Both the position numbers and the translations under genes were made by a program. A DNA stretch of 64,000 nt from the sequence record MZ501052. The stretch is one strand, 5' to 3'. This DNA comes from Escherichia phage AugustSocin. How positions within the stretch are numbered: the stretch's first letter is position 1; every line of letters begins with the position of its first letter. Below the pieces are notes generated by a model. The model did no database searches. It was not told the origin of the DNA and saw only the letters and a list, made by a program, of their open reading frames with translations. Shown one piece after another: positions 23,566 through 47,157 of this stretch.

Positions 23566-24036
23566 CTAGCGATAAAAACCAAAGTGACGATTAGCTTCAG
23601 CAATCTTTCTTTCTTCTTCGGACATTCTCCAGCGTAGTCCAACGTCAAAATGAGCCCAGACCATCTTAACAAATGCGTTTATATCTTTAATATCTTCAAT
23701 AATGAATGTTTTACTTTTAAAAGGCTGACTCGCTAATTTAACTTTATCATCTTCAAACAGGTCAAAAAGACCATATTCATGAGCTCTTTTATAGCCTTTA
23801 ATAGTTAAAGCTTCAGAAGAAGAAAATGGTGAATCTGTATTTTGCAAAATATCTTCAGTATGCTTTATAATTAGAATAACATTTTCTGGATATTTTCTTT
23901 CTTTTATATCTTTAATTAAAATATCCGGATTTTCTGCTAAAGGAATAATCAATGAGCAATTTTTATCAAGCGTATTTACTGATTTACCTTCTTTAGACAT
24001 AAATTCTATTGAATAATGTTTTGCTACTTCAATCAT
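23566..24036 (-). CDS. hypothetical protein (156 aa)
   Basis: ORF-track ORF. Confidence 0.5.
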
Positions 24037-24189: not shown

Positions 24190-24393
24190 TCATGATTTAT
24201 CACCATAGATGTCTCTCATCAATTTAAGCGCTGAGCGTTCTAATTTCTTTTCTTTCTCAGCACTAATCATTGATTTCATCCATTCTTCCGATTCATTCTG
24301 CATTTCTTTATTTGCTTGTTCAACCCAACCATCATCAATATACATTGAGTTTGGTCTATTGAACCATTCAAGAATCTTCTTCAGAACTTTCAT
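24190..24393 (-). CDS. hypothetical protein (67 aa)
   Basis: ORF-track ORF. Confidence 0.4.
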
Positions 24394-24865
24394 TTGTTTT
24401 ACCTAAAACAATAGTAGGAGCATCGTCAAATTCATGAATTTTTAGCAATTTTGGATTTAAATTATTCCATACATAATAAATGAAGTATGATAAAGCATCT
24501 TCACTCGCAATTATAAATTTATTTCCTTTATCTATTTTCCAGTCATATACTGAATCGTACGAATAAAAAGATAAAGGCTTATCATTATATTGTTCTGCGC
24601 TAACATTAATGTATTCGGATTTAGTAAATGCTTCAATTGCTCTAAACGGACTATTTGGAACAGTTTCAATAATACCAATCTTTTTAAGTTTTATTTCAGC
24701 ATCTTCTGGAACTGGCATTGAAACGAAATTTTCTACGAGATACATAGGATTACGATAACCCTTATCAATAATTACAGCTACAGTAATTGGAACATCTTTA
24801 GCAAATGACATGCTATTACTGCTAATATACATTTCAAACAAAATAGCTTCCATAATTTTCCTCAA
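24368..24865 (-). CDS. hypothetical protein (165 aa)
   Basis: ORF-track ORF. Confidence 0.5.
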
Positions 24866-26011: not shown

Positions 26012-26530
26012 TTAATAACCTCGGTCCTGACGAGCAAAGTTCTCGGCATTTTTCAGATAATAAAGTTTAAAGATTTCTTCTGCTGTAAGACCAAGACCTT
26101 GGAACATGTTCAGAACGAAATGGAGAATATCAATCATTTCAAACTTAATTTCCAGTTGGTCTTGTGGAGACAAATCAGTAATCAGAGTTTCACGACGTTC
26201 ACCATGCTGCGACTTCCAAGGTTTCCATACAGCAGATGCGTCTTTTTCACCATTACTCATACCACCAAGAGAAGTTAGAAGTTCACGGAATTCATCGTCA
26301 ATATAATCTTTCTGATTACGCAACCAATCAACAACTTCACCGGCAGTAGCCAAATCATCAGGATGACGATTATATTCAGGTTTATCTTTAGCTAAACGAA
26401 TCTGCAGAGATTTCTGCATGTCAAGCATTACCTGCAGCGGGTCTTTTTCATCACCGAGAATATCCCAATATTCATTTTGAGCTTTATCAACACCTTCGAT
26501 CAAATGAGCACATTCATTAAAGTGAGCCAT
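26012..26530 (-). CDS. 56: dCTP pyrophosphatase gp56
   Basis: about 171 aa from MAHFNECAHLIEG; AAGGAAA RBS; MazG-like; the track ORF has a 31-codon spurious extension. Confidence 0.88.
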   Translation of the reverse strand: MAHFNECAHLIEGVDKAQNEYWDILGDEKDPLQVMLDMQKSLQIRLAKDKPEYNRHPDDLATAGEVVDWLRNQKDYIDDEFRELLTSLGGMSNGEKDASAVWKPWKSQHGERRETLITDLSPQDQLEIKFEMIDILHFVLNMFQGLGLTAEEIFKLYYLKNAENFARQDRGY

Positions 26531-26601
26531 TATTTTTCCTTTCAATTCATGGGTTAGTAGATTAATTATACAATAAATATATAAAGCAATAAGGAGGACA
26601 T

Positions 26602-26802
26602 ATGGTACAAAAATTAATGGCACTTGTTAATGCCATCAAAGGTAATAAAAAGCGTATAGCTTTTACTATTTCTGCTATGGTAGGAATTTTACTCTGGAAC
26701 TTTATTTTATCACCTGTTGCAATTGCACATGGTATTAATATTCCAGTAGTTACTCTTGATACGTTCGTAGATTTAGCATTTGCTTTAGTTGGGTTAATTT
26801 AA
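26602..26802 (+). CDS. hypothetical small hydrophobic protein (66 aa) on the plus strand
   Basis: strong AAGGAGG RBS 5 nt before the ATG; stop overlaps the gene 61 stop (convergent). Confidence 0.4.
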   Translation: MVQKLMALVNAIKGNKKRIAFTISAMVGILLWNFILSPVAIAHGINIPVVTLDTFVDLAFALVGLI

Positions 26803-31278: not shown

Positions 31279-31641
31279 TTAAAAGAATTTAAATTTTTTC
31301 TTTGACCTTTTATTAAATGCATCTTGTAGTTGCATTGTAATACATTTTTCTACATGAGGAGCTAACTCAGCTTTTCTTTCTTGGTCAAGAACAGCAAAGT
31401 CCATTACAACCTTTCCATCAACCCAATCCAGTTTTGTTACATACACTATATGTGTAGAACCATCTTCTAGTTTAATGACAATCTCCTGGATAACATTTTC
31501 CATGGCAGATTTAATTATCTTAAGAGATTCATTAAAAAGACGTTCTTTTCTTTCTTCTTCCCCCTCCGAAGAGGGGGATTCATCGATAATTTCTAGATCT
31601 AAATCTAAATCATCTTTATTCATTAAATTCTTCCATATCAC
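31279..31641 (-). CDS. 40: gp40 head vertex assembly chaperone
   Basis: 120-aa ORF between uvsX and 41; start may be internal. Confidence 0.6.
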   Translation of the reverse strand: MIWKNLMNKDDLDLDLEIIDESPSSEGEEERKERLFNESLKIIKSAMENVIQEIVIKLEDGSTHIVYVTKLDWVDGKVVMDFAVLDQERKAELAPHVEKCITMQLQDAFNKRSKKKFKFF

Positions 31642-32797
31642 TTAACTGTTCGAGGTCAGTTTCTAAATCAGCAGCTGATTTACTTTTACTTTCTGGAGAT
31701 TTAAATTTTTCAACCTTTGAGTTAATCAATTCATCAACTTCAGCTTCAACAATTTCATTGCTATCAATAGCACCTAACTGATAAGCACGTTTAATAGCAT
31801 CTCGGAATGGTTGATGCTTAAATAAAGGACCCCAGAATGTAGTGCAGTTGGTATCTTTTGCACGCCAAGATTTTTCTTCGCGAATCATCTCACCGGTTTC
31901 TTCATCAAGAAATTCACGAGCATACCAACCGTTCTTAGGTTTTACCACGAATCCTAATTCTAGAGCCATATCTAACAATCCAGAATAAGGATCGATACCA
32001 CCGTCAAATTTAACATCAATAAAGAATTTACTTTTTTCTTTAACGGTACGAGATTTTTCTACATTTAGAACAAATTGATACCCCTGAAGATCAGAACCAT
32101 CTTTAATCTGGCGTTTACCGATAATGAATACGGTATCAGCCGAATACATTACGCCTGTACCACCTGTCATCACGGTTTTACTAAACATTTCAATTGTTTC
32201 AATTGTATGGTTAACCGCAACACATGGAATATTTTTAATGCTAAAATAAGGAGTAACAATACGGAATAATGACTTCAGTGATTTAGCACGAGTCATATCT
32301 GCCACAGATTTTTCATTCAAGGCATCTTCCGTTTCTTTCTTAGAAGCCATATTACCGATTGAGTCGATGAATACAATAACCTTTTCACCGCGCTCAATAG
32401 CTTCAAGCTGGTTCACCATATCAATTTTCAGCTGTTCAACTGACTGAATCGGCGTATGAATTACTCGTTCCGGGTCAACTCCCATGGATCGCAAATAAGC
32501 TGGAGTAATACCAAATTCACTATCATAGAATAGACAAACCGCGTCAGGATATTTGTTCAAATATGCCGCAACCATAGTCAAAGACATATTTGATTTAAAG
32601 TGTTTAGAAGGCCCTGCGAAAATAGTTAAACCAGACTGCATGCCGCCATCAATCGCACCAGAAATAGCAATATTAAGCATTGGGATTTTTGTACGGATTA
32701 CATCCTTTTCATTAAAGAATTTAGATGTAGTCAGTTCAGCAGTCATTTTAGAAGTGGAAGCTTTAATCAAACGGGATTTTAAATCTGCAATAGACAT
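31616..32797 (-). CDS. uvsX: UvsX recombinase (RecA-like)
   Basis: 393-aa ORF; Walker A GPSKHFKS; near-identical to recalled T4 UvsX. Confidence 0.95.
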   Translation of the reverse strand: MSIADLKSRLIKASTSKMTAELTTSKFFNEKDVIRTKIPMLNIAISGAIDGGMQSGLTIFAGPSKHFKSNMSLTMVAAYLNKYPDAVCLFYDSEFGITPAYLRSMGVDPERVIHTPIQSVEQLKIDMVNQLEAIERGEKVIVFIDSIGNMASKKETEDALNEKSVADMTRAKSLKSLFRIVTPYFSIKNIPCVAVNHTIETIEMFSKTVMTGGTGVMYSADTVFIIGKRQIKDGSDLQGYQFVLNVEKSRTVKEKSKFFIDVKFDGGIDPYSGLLDMALELGFVVKPKNGWYAREFLDEETGEMIREEKSWRAKDTNCTTFWGPLFKHQPFRDAIKRAYQLGAIDSNEIVEAEVDELINSKVEKFKSPESKSKSAADLETDLEQLSDMEEFNE

Positions 32798-32874: not shown

Positions 32875-33717
32875 TTAATCAACTGCTATCGGATGAATAG
32901 CATTAAACTTATGAAATGCTTCTGATTTTTCTTTACGTGAAACACACATGCGAAGAACCTTTAATGGCTCATCTTCTTCACCCAACGATTTTCGTTTTTC
33001 AATATTCGATGTTTTCCAACGAGCTTGTTCTGGAAACTCTCTATTGATTTGCTCAAGCGCTCTATTATGTTTAGAATTACTACGAATTGAACTGCACCCT
33101 CCAGGAGCTTGTGCTTTTCCAGATACAACCAGATATTTGAACAAGGCCAAATGCGGATAACCTTGATTAATTAAATTGAGAAATGCATACATATCTTCGC
33201 ACAAATCAATTTTTCCATACCCAATTTGTTCTGTCGTAAGTTTTCCAAGGTCATACCATGTATTCGTGAATCCATATAAATTTTCACGATAATTACCCCA
33301 AGATGAAGTAATTTTAAAAATAGGTAGACGAGCATGACCGTGATAATACCCACAATCCATGGCATCTTCGACGTATTGAATCAATTCATAGAACTGTTCA
33401 CGAGTCAATTGATTGACTTTATCCACACAACGACGATCATCTCTTTTTCGCATTGAACTCATACGAATAGTAGTATCATCGTCAATCATCCAGATTCGTT
33501 GACCTGCATACATATCAGTAATTGCTTTACGAGTACCGGCAATTCCATTAACATCATCAGGAATAGTTACAATTTTAGCTTTAGACCCATAGGCATCATA
33601 ATAAGCTTTTTCTTCATGTTCACGTACTACGATATGAGGTTCATAATCAGTCGGAAACATATCAAGGGCAGAAACTGCCCCTACACGTTGATAGCTCGGA
33701 ATTACGAATTGAATCAT
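32875..33717 (-). CDS. glycosyltransferase at the beta-gt locus, likely T2/T6-type beta-glucosyl-HMC alpha-glucosyltransferase
   Basis: 280-aa ORF with DxD-like motif (MIDDDT); occupies the beta-gt position but is shorter and unrelated to 351-aa T4 beta-gt. Confidence 0.55.
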   Translation of the reverse strand: MIQFVIPSYQRVGAVSALDMFPTDYEPHIVVREHEEKAYYDAYGSKAKIVTIPDDVNGIAGTRKAITDMYAGQRIWMIDDDTTIRMSSMRKRDDRRCVDKVNQLTREQFYELIQYVEDAMDCGYYHGHARLPIFKITSSWGNYRENLYGFTNTWYDLGKLTTEQIGYGKIDLCEDMYAFLNLINQGYPHLALFKYLVVSGKAQAPGGCSSIRSNSKHNRALEQINREFPEQARWKTSNIEKRKSLGEEDEPLKVLRMCVSRKEKSEAFHKFNAIHPIAVD

Positions 33718-34355
33718 TTAAGTGCCTTACATTTGTCAAAATGGTATCTTGTCATATTTGGCCCACGTCCTTTTAGTCCGCAATGCGGACATATTTTTTC
33801 TATCAAATTATGAGGTTTTCCTTTACGATTTTTAGACATCGTTTCTTTAATTATTTTAGCTTTTTCTACGCCAAAAATTTCTTCATAAGTTTTACCAGAA
33901 TTTTCCTTGGCTCGATTTATAATTCCATATGCCTGCTCATTTTTACCATACATTGGATTACCTTCGCCTTTCATTCTTTTAGAATGATCAGGACGCTTGA
34001 TTCCACGAAAGGCATTTCCGCACTTATATCTTTCTTCTGGAGATAGTTTTTTACCGTACATTCCATTTAATTTGCCTGGAAAACTTCCTCCCCATGCTTC
34101 ATTCTTTAAATTATATGAATCCGGACAATTAGCAGCATCTAAACAAGTTAAAATAATTTCTTCAACCTGTCTAAACATTGGTCCTTCATATAATATTTCT
34201 TTATTAAAGGATTTTATTCCATATTTCTTTTTAGCATGTTGCCAAACTACACCCGAACCATCATAATTCGGGTTGTGACCATCATGACTTCCTATATACC
34301 ACTTTTTAGTTTTAGGATGTTTATACTTATAAACATGCGGCACATTTACTTCCAT
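33714..34355 (-). CDS. GIY-YIG family homing endonuclease (Seg-like)
   Basis: N-terminal VYKY...KWYIGSH (GIY-YIG-like); basic C-terminal NUMOD-like repeats; CPHC...C zinc-finger-like end. Confidence 0.6.
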   Translation of the reverse strand: MEVNVPHVYKYKHPKTKKWYIGSHDGHNPNYDGSGVVWQHAKKKYGIKSFNKEILYEGPMFRQVEEIILTCLDAANCPDSYNLKNEAWGGSFPGKLNGMYGKKLSPEERYKCGNAFRGIKRPDHSKRMKGEGNPMYGKNEQAYGIINRAKENSGKTYEEIFGVEKAKIIKETMSKNRKGKPHNLIEKICPHCGLKGRGPNMTRYHFDKCKALK

Positions 34356-35086
34356 TTTCCAGTATAATCCTTTTTAGCAATATGAGTCTCACCGGTGTTC
34401 CACCAATGGTCAACTAAATAAAACTGATTTTCGTACACATGAAGACTTCCAACGTTCCATATAATAGAACCTGCTTTATATTGCCGCGATGGGTCGCCTG
34501 CATTCAAATCAGATACTAATTTATCTAGTACGTATTTTTGCCAAGCATAATCATTACGATAGCCTGCCCAGCAATCATTGCTTCTCATGCTAACAACCGC
34601 ATTGACTTTCTTATCACGAATCAGGTACTGTACTGTATTAGTACACATGAAATCTGACATACCATCTTTATTGTAGTCAAATTGCATGGATGGACGAGTA
34701 TAAATCATGATACCACGTCGAGAATCAGGATTTTGACCAAGTTCAGCTAAACACATATCATACTGGGCATAGTTATCTTCTGACCAAATAGCCCAACCAT
34801 AATTCGAGTTAATTTCGCCTTTAGAAGATGCTACCTGCTGCCAAATCTTTGGTGTTTCGCCTGGAATATCTTTAACAAACAAGCTCTTAGATTTATACCA
34901 TTCAAGTTCACGCTGAATGTATTCATCATTAAGAGCGCCAAAAATAAACGGTTCATCTGCTACAAATGATGCGCCAATAATTTCAATAGTTTTAACACCG
35001 GTTTTATCAACTACGAAATCTTTTTCTTTTAATGCAAGCCCCAAATGAAGACGGATTTCTTCAACTGTCATAGAGTCACTAATCAT
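34346..35086 (-). CDS. 42: dCMP hydroxymethylase gp42
   Basis: 246-aa ORF; thymidylate-synthase-like fold motifs; size and synteny. Confidence 0.92.
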   Translation of the reverse strand: MISDSMTVEEIRLHLGLALKEKDFVVDKTGVKTIEIIGASFVADEPFIFGALNDEYIQRELEWYKSKSLFVKDIPGETPKIWQQVASSKGEINSNYGWAIWSEDNYAQYDMCLAELGQNPDSRRGIMIYTRPSMQFDYNKDGMSDFMCTNTVQYLIRDKKVNAVVSMRSNDCWAGYRNDYAWQKYVLDKLVSDLNAGDPSRQYKAGSIIWNVGSLHVYENQFYLVDHWWNTGETHIAKKDYTGKWK

Positions 35087-45938: not shown

Positions 45939-45957
45939 AAAGGGCCGAAGCCCTTTA
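45939..45957 (-). terminator. tetraloop hairpin at the alpha-gt 3' end
   Basis: AAGGGCC-GAAG-CCCTTT with T-rich flank. Confidence 0.45.
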
Positions 45958-47157
45958 TTTTGTAATAATGTCAAACTGTTCTTTAAAGCAGAAGCTTGAA
46001 TCTTGATGCTGATACAAAAATTCATATGCTTTTTCTCGCTCACGGTCATAAAGAGCTCGGTCAGATGACAGTTCTTTAATACGTTCAAATGTTGATTCCA
46101 TATCATTTTCATCAAACCAAATGATACCGCTATCATGCGAGGTCAAAGGAGTATTATCAACACGGAATTTTAAATTTTCGCCAGTAGATTTCCAAAATAC
46201 CGGAATTGTTCCACATGCACCAAGCTCGAGATGAGTATATTCTAAAGAACGTTGTAGATATTTTTTGTCCAACTTACTCAGCTGATAACCAAATCCGGAT
46301 TTACTCATGCGTTCAAGCATTTCGCTATTTACATAACGGTCAAGAATTTGCGTTGGCAAATTAGGAGCAATTTTAATTTGGTCTACTTGATGAAGACGAT
46401 AATACTCGTATGGAATTCCTTTTTCTTTAATAGGAATGAACGCTGGAGAACGTTCCAGACCTTCCATAATAGTACTTAGTCCTGCAGGTTTAAGATGTTT
46501 TTCGTGAAAATCAAACATCTGATAAAAACCTTTCCATGTAGTCGTACGACCAATCCAACGGTTGATATTCATGTTAATTTCAGAAACATCTTTCCAGTAG
46601 GTTGACCGAACCTTCGCAATATCCATAGGAGGCTGAAAGTTATATACTGTCGGTGCTTCTTCAATATCATCAAACAGAGAAACTGTTTCTGGATACCATT
46701 CTTTCATCAGAACTTTATTAAAATCACCATTATCAGAATGGCTAAAAATAACATCAGCTCGACGAACAGTTTCTTCTAATCCCAAATTTCGACGCAAAGA
46801 AAGAGAAGAATGGTCATGTTGATAAACTACAACACGAACAGAAGGTTTAATGTTATCAATAATTTTTTTATAGTTATTAATAGAGTCTTCTTCAACCGAA
46901 GTAGCAGGAACTGAATTGATAATTAGAATATCACAATCATTTACCAGCTTAAGTGTTTTATCATATTCTTTTGCCAATAAAACCGGAATTGAAAATGATT
47001 TATAATCATGCGCGCAATTACGAGTAAATGATTTATCTTTAGCATAAACCAAAGTTACTTCATGACCATTCTTAATAAACCAATCACGTTGCTCAAGAGA
47101 AAATTTAGTTACACCACAACCTTCAAGACCTCGAGCCATAAAAATACATACTTTCAT
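45955..47157 (-). CDS. a-gt: alpha-glucosyltransferase
   Basis: 400-aa ORF; near-identical to recalled T4 alpha-gt. Confidence 0.93.
   Translation of the reverse strand: MKVCIFMARGLEGCGVTKFSLEQRDWFIKNGHEVTLVYAKDKSFTRNCAHDYKSFSIPVLLAKEYDKTLKLVNDCDILIINSVPATSVEEDSINNYKKIIDNIKPSVRVVVYQHDHSSLSLRRNLGLEETVRRADVIFSHSDNGDFNKVLMKEWYPETVSLFDDIEEAPTVYNFQPPMDIAKVRSTYWKDVSEINMNINRWIGRTTTWKGFYQMFDFHEKHLKPAGLSTIMEGLERSPAFIPIKEKGIPYEYYRLHQVDQIKIAPNLPTQILDRYVNSEMLERMSKSGFGYQLSKLDKKYLQRSLEYTHLELGACGTIPVFWKSTGENLKFRVDNTPLTSHDSGIIWFDENDMESTFERIKELSSDRALYDREREKAYEFLYQHQDSSFCFKEQFDIITK

Follow-up and report, generated by a model that had tools for sequence, protein, structure and literature searches.

A probable T2/T6-type gentiobiose-forming DNA glucosyltransferase gene at the beta-gt position of Escherichia phage AugustSocin

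Second DNA glucosyltransferases of T2, T6, and their relatives

Phages T2 and T6 lack beta-gt and carry gentiobiosylated 5-hydroxymethylcytosine (gentiobiosyl-hmC), which amounts to ~5% in T2 and ~72% in T6, with ~25% unglucosylated hmC in both (PMC11078745; bioRxiv 10.64898/2026.02.25.707755). The gene concerned is variously named ba-gt, ggt, or TAGT (TET-associated glycosyltransferase). T6 without ba-gt loses gentiobiosylation and shows greater sensitivity to the Brig1 glycosylase (PMC11078745); the DNA of this deletion mutant behaves as though it held alpha-glucosyl-hmC only, in that Brig1 degrades it and BapA frees glucose from it (PMC11078745; bioRxiv 10.64898/2026.02.25.707755). In T2, the CDS annotated as beta-glucosyl-HMC-alpha-glucosyltransferase sits between gene 42 and uvsX, and the T6 copy is found at the same locus.

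This arrangement is widespread. Ten environmental Tequatroviruses that encode alpha-GT and TAGT and lack beta-GT were found by HPLC-MS to contain 5-hmdC, alpha-glucosyl-mdC, and alpha-gentiobiosyl-mdC, with no beta-glucosyl form, and their TAGT lies “at the position syntenic with” T4 beta-GT (PMC13390438). A survey of 753 GT-encoding phage genomes found alpha-GT and beta-GT together in only six of them, most genomes pairing either enzyme with TAGT (PMC13216743).

The 280-aa ORF, its family, and its fold

The sequence analysed here, which we call the window, covers about 64 kb of the ~167-kb AugustSocin genome (MZ501052). Its gene order (41, 40, uvsX, the glycosyltransferase ORF, 42, imm, 43) is that of T4-like phages, and a 24-kb stretch around the locus is 96–97% identical to many Tequatrovirus genomes (PE37, Sf23, ACG-C40, wV7, and others) and identical to none. 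The features at the locus are as follows.

31616..32797, minus strand: uvsX recombinase, the downstream flank marker (Pfam T4_UVSX_C, E = 5e-39; RecA also matched).
32875..33717, minus strand: probable ba-gt/ggt/TAGT (280 aa), the beta-glucosyl-HMC-alpha-glucosyltransferase that would add the second sugar and form gentiobiose, assigned by PHROG 842, Pfam PF20691, identity to T2 and WL-3, and a GT-A fold model.
33475..33483, minus strand: codons GAC GAT GAT for D79-D80-D81, the DxD motif predicted, from conservation and its canonical GT-A position, to bind metal and UDP-sugar.
33714..34355, minus strand: GIY-YIG Seg-like homing endonuclease, 213 aa (PHROG 314, E = 2e-31).
34346..35086, minus strand: gene 42, upstream of the transferase, dCMP hydroxymethylase, which makes hm-dCMP (Pfam Thymidylat_synt; 93.9% identical to T4 gp42).

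A first-pass annotation, made from the sequence alone, had described a 280-aa ORF with the motif MIDDDT at 32875..33717, had placed it between uvsX and gene 42, and had proposed that it encodes the beta-glucosyl-HMC-alpha-glucosyltransferase that T2 and T6 carry at this locus. The ORF is there, with an ATG start on the minus strand, and its position was given correctly; the interval, however, contains two genes, since the endonuclease ORF also lies in it. The proposed identity stands as well, as does the assignment of ba-gt to this locus in T2 and T6. Comparison with the T2 and T6 enzymes, which the annotation had suggested as a check, returned 98.2% identity to the T2 protein and 98% to the T6 copy in NC_054907. 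The ORF further matches PHROG 842, “beta-glucosyl-HMC-alpha-glucosyltransferase,” over its full length (E = 2e-88) and the TAGT family profile PF20691 at 38.7 bits, above the gathering score of 27.5. Like its T2 and T6 counterparts, it lies between gene 42 and uvsX in the same orientation, carries the DDD motif, and co-occurs with alpha-gt. The window protein and that of T2 both have 280 aa, and that of T6 NC_054907 has 279. The junction with gene 42 differs: the stop of gene 42 and the start of the transferase gene overlap in T2 and T6, whereas in the window the endonuclease gene separates them.

With homologues at 48–98% identity and codon differences from the T2 gene that comprise 22 synonymous and only 5 non-synonymous changes, the ORF is no chance reading frame; the codon pattern is the signature of purifying selection. 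We are highly confident that it is an orthologue of T2/T6 ba-gt and that AugustSocin is a Tequatrovirus with the pathway hmC to alpha-glucosyl-hmC to gentiobiosyl-hmC, with activity, linkage, and DNA composition as we infer them below.

A tblastn search of 50,697 phage records found homologues in 688, of which 472 hold a copy at least 90% identical; the closest match is WL-3 (99.6%), and the identical protein occurs in no record. Close copies of T4-type beta-gt (again at least 90% identity) are present in 29 records of the collection. By these counts, it is T4 that is unusual and AugustSocin that is usual. The first-pass annotation had implied something out of the ordinary, and this is unsupported, because a TAGT at the beta-gt position, in company with alpha-GT, is what this genus commonly has. 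All of this is in the literature, the gene and its position as well as the fold class and the product, and near-identical copies are known from hundreds of sequenced phages.

A search of PDB sequences with the transferase gave two chance hits only (E above 1, unrelated proteins) and none other at E ≤10. As no solved relative was returned, evidence on the fold had to come from a model. The AlphaFold2 model, built on an alignment of the window sequence with search-returned homologues and leaving out the T2 and T6 rows, matches GT-A (GT2-like) glycosyltransferases and not the GT-B fold of the T4 alpha- and beta-gt. Its confidence is moderate, with residues 125–147 and 204–211 below pLDDT 50. The motif MIDDDT corresponds to residues 77–82, and its DDD triplet, which does not vary among 12 homologues as distant as 32% identity, directly follows a predicted strand at 74–77, the canonical GT-A position. 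A GT-A fold with a conserved DxD motif, as in the T2/T6 ba-gt, is thus predicted for the window protein. We would consider it an inverting GT-A-fold transferase, in which D79-D80-D81 probably hold a divalent metal and the UDP-sugar.

Among cellular enzymes, the GT2-family inverting GT-A transferases TarP (6H1J), PcManGT (6YV7), BcsA (9FMV), and AvpGT (9JMA) share 6–16% identity with the window protein, and the cellular GT2 enzymes act on lipid, polysaccharide, or teichoic acid, whereas the predicted acceptor of the phage enzyme is a sugar on duplex DNA. Unlike them, the phage enzyme has no membrane or accessory domains.

Around the locus, 14 promoter-like sites were counted against 11.7 in shuffled sequence, and two terminator-like sites against 1.7, in neither case an excess. 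One site flagged by the terminator scan is a 9-bp G+C-rich hairpin, TAGGGGCAG-TTT-CTGCCCTTG, at 33663..33683 (minus strand) in codons 12–18 of the transferase gene; it is kept in T2 and T6, and the regional count of such sites is, as stated, not above that in shuffled sequence. Homopolymer runs (at least six A/T or at least five G/C) were not found in the window's transferase gene. A preprint on a contingency locus was considered as a link to ba-gt and set aside, as the gene it concerns is agt (alpha-gt).

Sugar, acceptor, and activity of the enzyme

Two further genes of the pathway lie in the window.

26015..26530, minus strand: gene 56, dCTPase/dUTPase, which removes dCTP so that only hmC is incorporated (76% identical to T4 gp56 over 171 aa by tblastn; PHROG 173).
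45955..47157, minus strand: alpha-gt (400 aa), the DNA alpha-glucosyltransferase that supplies alpha-glucosyl-hmC as acceptor (PHROG 2888, E = 2e-222).

The alpha-gt matches the T4 alpha-gt crystal-structure sequences 1XV5 and 1Y6F end to end (E = 2e-257). The 280-aa transferase therefore occurs together with alpha-gt, gp42, and gp56, and, with no beta-gt in the window, this constitutes the full T2/T6-type set. In such a phage, gp42 and gp56 would replace cytosine by 5-hydroxymethylcytosine, alpha-gt would place an alpha-linked glucose onto most hmC residues in the DNA, and the 280-aa enzyme would then take another glucose from UDP-glucose and join it to the first by a beta-1,6 bond, giving gentiobiosyl-hmC. 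This last step, with UDP-glucose as donor and alpha-glucosyl-hmC in DNA as acceptor, we infer from orthology to the T6 enzyme. Given the T2/T6-type gene set, the virion DNA would be expected to hold unglucosylated hmC, alpha-glucosyl-hmC, and gentiobiosyl-hmC, and no beta-glucosyl-hmC. The earlier expectation of gentiobiosyl or mixed glucosylated hmC DNA is supported to this extent, and PMC13390438 states essentially the same and includes an LC-MS-type experiment, on other Tequatroviruses.

How much of each sugar is present is a separate matter. The mono- to di-glucosyl ratio differs ~15-fold between T2 and T6, whose enzymes are ~98% identical, so it is not predictable from sequence; in the Durham phages, hmC : glc : gentiobiosyl ranges from about 1:2:2 to about 1:0:2 (PMC13390438). 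At the variable positions, the window protein agrees with T2 in Y40, D55, and R106 and with T6 in R11 and P251. In T4, dam lies between genes 56 and 61, with segF beside gene 56; in the window, tblastn found dam neither between genes 56 and 61 (26530..26799) nor elsewhere, and segF nowhere. Of the Tequatroviruses in PMC13390438, those without dam were the ones with about two-thirds gentiobiosyl-dC, a correlation only. We considered and rejected calling AugustSocin T2-like (~5%) or T6-like (~72%), as neither the shared residues nor the absence of dam is causal evidence.

Against the T2 protein, the five substitutions are (window residue first) R11H, K46R, V50I, L147S, and P251S. The fourth is private to this phage: Ser147 has become Leu (TCA to TTA; codon 147 at 33277..33279, minus strand), and L147 is seen only in the window sequence. 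The residue adjoins the invariant N146 and is Ser in 10 of the 11 homologues compared, the exception being the Lys of the most distant, P0011, at 32% identity. S147L falls in a poorly modelled loop.

The public T6 records deserve a remark of their own, as MH550421 and NC_054907 show different ba-gt lesions. In MH550421 (2924..2980 in the locus extract), codon 10 is TAG (amber) and the CDS is annotated from Met20, with 261 aa; the same codon is CAG in NC_054907 and CAA in the window and T2. In NC_054907/AP018814 (911..1750 in the locus extract), one Asp of the invariant DDD is lost in frame (WMI-DDTT), leaving 279 aa. Either T6 laboratory stocks differ in ba-gt or one of the records has errors, a point that concerns T6 and not the window. 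Please note that the T6 TAGT reference in PMC13216743, YP_010067197.1, is the NC_054907 protein with the missing Asp.

These observations bear on the alternative that the window enzyme is a ba-gt orthologue weakened or inactivated through S147L, which would leave DNA of essentially alpha-glucosyl-hmC and hmC, like that of T2 or of T6 deleted for ba-gt. The near-constancy of Ser147 next to N146 is compatible with this, and the two differing T6 lesions suggest that ba-gt can suffer loss or damage in stocks kept in the laboratory. Yet the ORF is neither truncated nor interrupted, none of the invariant residues is changed, and the one substitution, conservative to moderate in kind, falls in the poorly modelled loop; we regard such a loss of function as highly unlikely.

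It could also be proposed that the protein belongs to the TAGT family but transfers a different sugar, such as the arabinose of Mosigvirus, or has a different acceptor, such as unmodified hmC. The TAGT family is broad, and its many solitary, distant members without alpha- or beta-GT imply other specificities (PMC13216743); the Pfam score here, moreover, is only moderate at 38.7 bits. Against this, 98% identity to T2/T6 enzymes with a known deletion phenotype makes a changed specificity very unlikely (PMC11078745), gp42 is an hmC-type synthase (93.9% identical to that of T4), and alpha-gt is present. The arabinosylation reading in particular was rejected on the 98% identity together with the hmC-type gp42, and the proposal as a whole is highly improbable.

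The last comparison is with T4 beta-gt (GT63, PF09198; PDB 1JG7 family), which resembles the window enzyme in being a UDP-glucose-dependent DNA-modifying glucosyltransferase at a syntenic position; both would form a beta glycosidic bond, if the window enzyme acts as predicted. In sequence and architecture, they part company. T4 beta-gt has 351 aa (the first-pass figure of about 351 was correct) and a GT-B fold, whereas the window protein has 280 aa and, by its model, a GT-A fold (PMC13216743); the acceptor is hmC itself for the former and probably alpha-glucosyl-hmC for the latter. The first-pass annotation saw no resemblance between them and would have yielded to sequence identity, which was not found: BLASTP between the two gave E = 2.2, a tblastn search of the entire window with T4 beta-gt a best value of E = 1.4, the Pfam search no PF09198 match in the window protein, and the PDB sequence search no T4 beta-gt structure, although such structures are deposited there. 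Neither sequence similarity to T4 beta-gt nor its two-domain GT-B fold is thus seen in the window protein. A T4-type or diverged beta-gt, glucosylating naked hmC in beta linkage to give T4-like mono-glucosylated DNA, would fit the position between uvsX and gene 42, but on the sequence and fold comparisons, and with beta-glucosyl-dC absent by LC-MS from phages with the same gene set (PMC13390438), this reading is effectively refuted. A beta-gt elsewhere in the ~167-kb genome is formally possible; it would be outside the known beta-gt locus, and nothing suggests one.

With gentiobiosylation as the preferred reading, AugustSocin would be placed in the T2/T6 hypermodification class (hmC, alpha-glucosyl-hmC, and gentiobiosyl-hmC) and not in the T4 class (alpha- and beta-glucosyl-hmC). 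Class membership predicts behaviour toward defences that read sugar identity, since the expected sugar mixture changes which of them attack the DNA, be they glycosylases (Brig1), deglucosylases (BapA), or type IV enzymes. Gentiobiosyl-hmC resists Brig1 and BapA in vitro (PMC11078745; 10.64898/2026.02.25.707755), and GmrSD-family enzymes, BrxU included, restrict phages with glucosyl and gentiobiosyl modifications (PMC13216743; PMC13390438). The use of this assignment lies in annotation and in the choice of therapeutic phages; as biology, it is not novel.

The neighbouring homing endonuclease and a second side observation

In alignment with T2 and T6, the endonuclease gene forms a ~640-nt insertion that fits precisely between the stop codon of gene 42 and the ATG of the transferase gene. 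The ORF shares 10 nt with the end of gene 42 and the tetranucleotide ATGA with the start of the transferase gene, and its product is 32–35% identical to T4 SegA and SegC (32% for SegA), with a weak NUMOD3 match. The gene is missing from T2, T6, and T4 and found in WL-3. Copies that are at least 95% identical were counted in 77 phage records, compared with the 472 that hold a close TAGT; T4-like phages of Klebsiella have a 70%-identical homologue at this junction. The last ~70 nt of gene 42 (about 34346..34420) show clustered substitutions relative to T2 and T6. Such clusters are typical of the flanks of free-standing homing endonuclease genes. The endonuclease is a sporadic mobile element that stands outside the modification chemistry and is physically linked to the transferase allele.

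One may speculate that, during mixed infection, the endonuclease might cleave the genomes of relatives that lack it, close to the junction, and carry the linked TAGT allele into them by co-conversion and that, separately, S147L could shift the sugar ratio; we think these ideas improbable. Were the first of them true, gentiobiosylation would be a genotype that the endonuclease actively propagates, possibly at the expense of beta-gt in T4-like genomes, and such spread could help to explain the dominance of alpha-GT with TAGT in the genus.

Lastly, two ORFs on the minus strand, at 23566..24036 (156 aa) and 24368..24865 (165 aa), match the Mrh family PHROG 1234 (E = 2e-52 and 2e-61), which suggests an mrh duplication or a paralogue of this transcription modulator in the phage.
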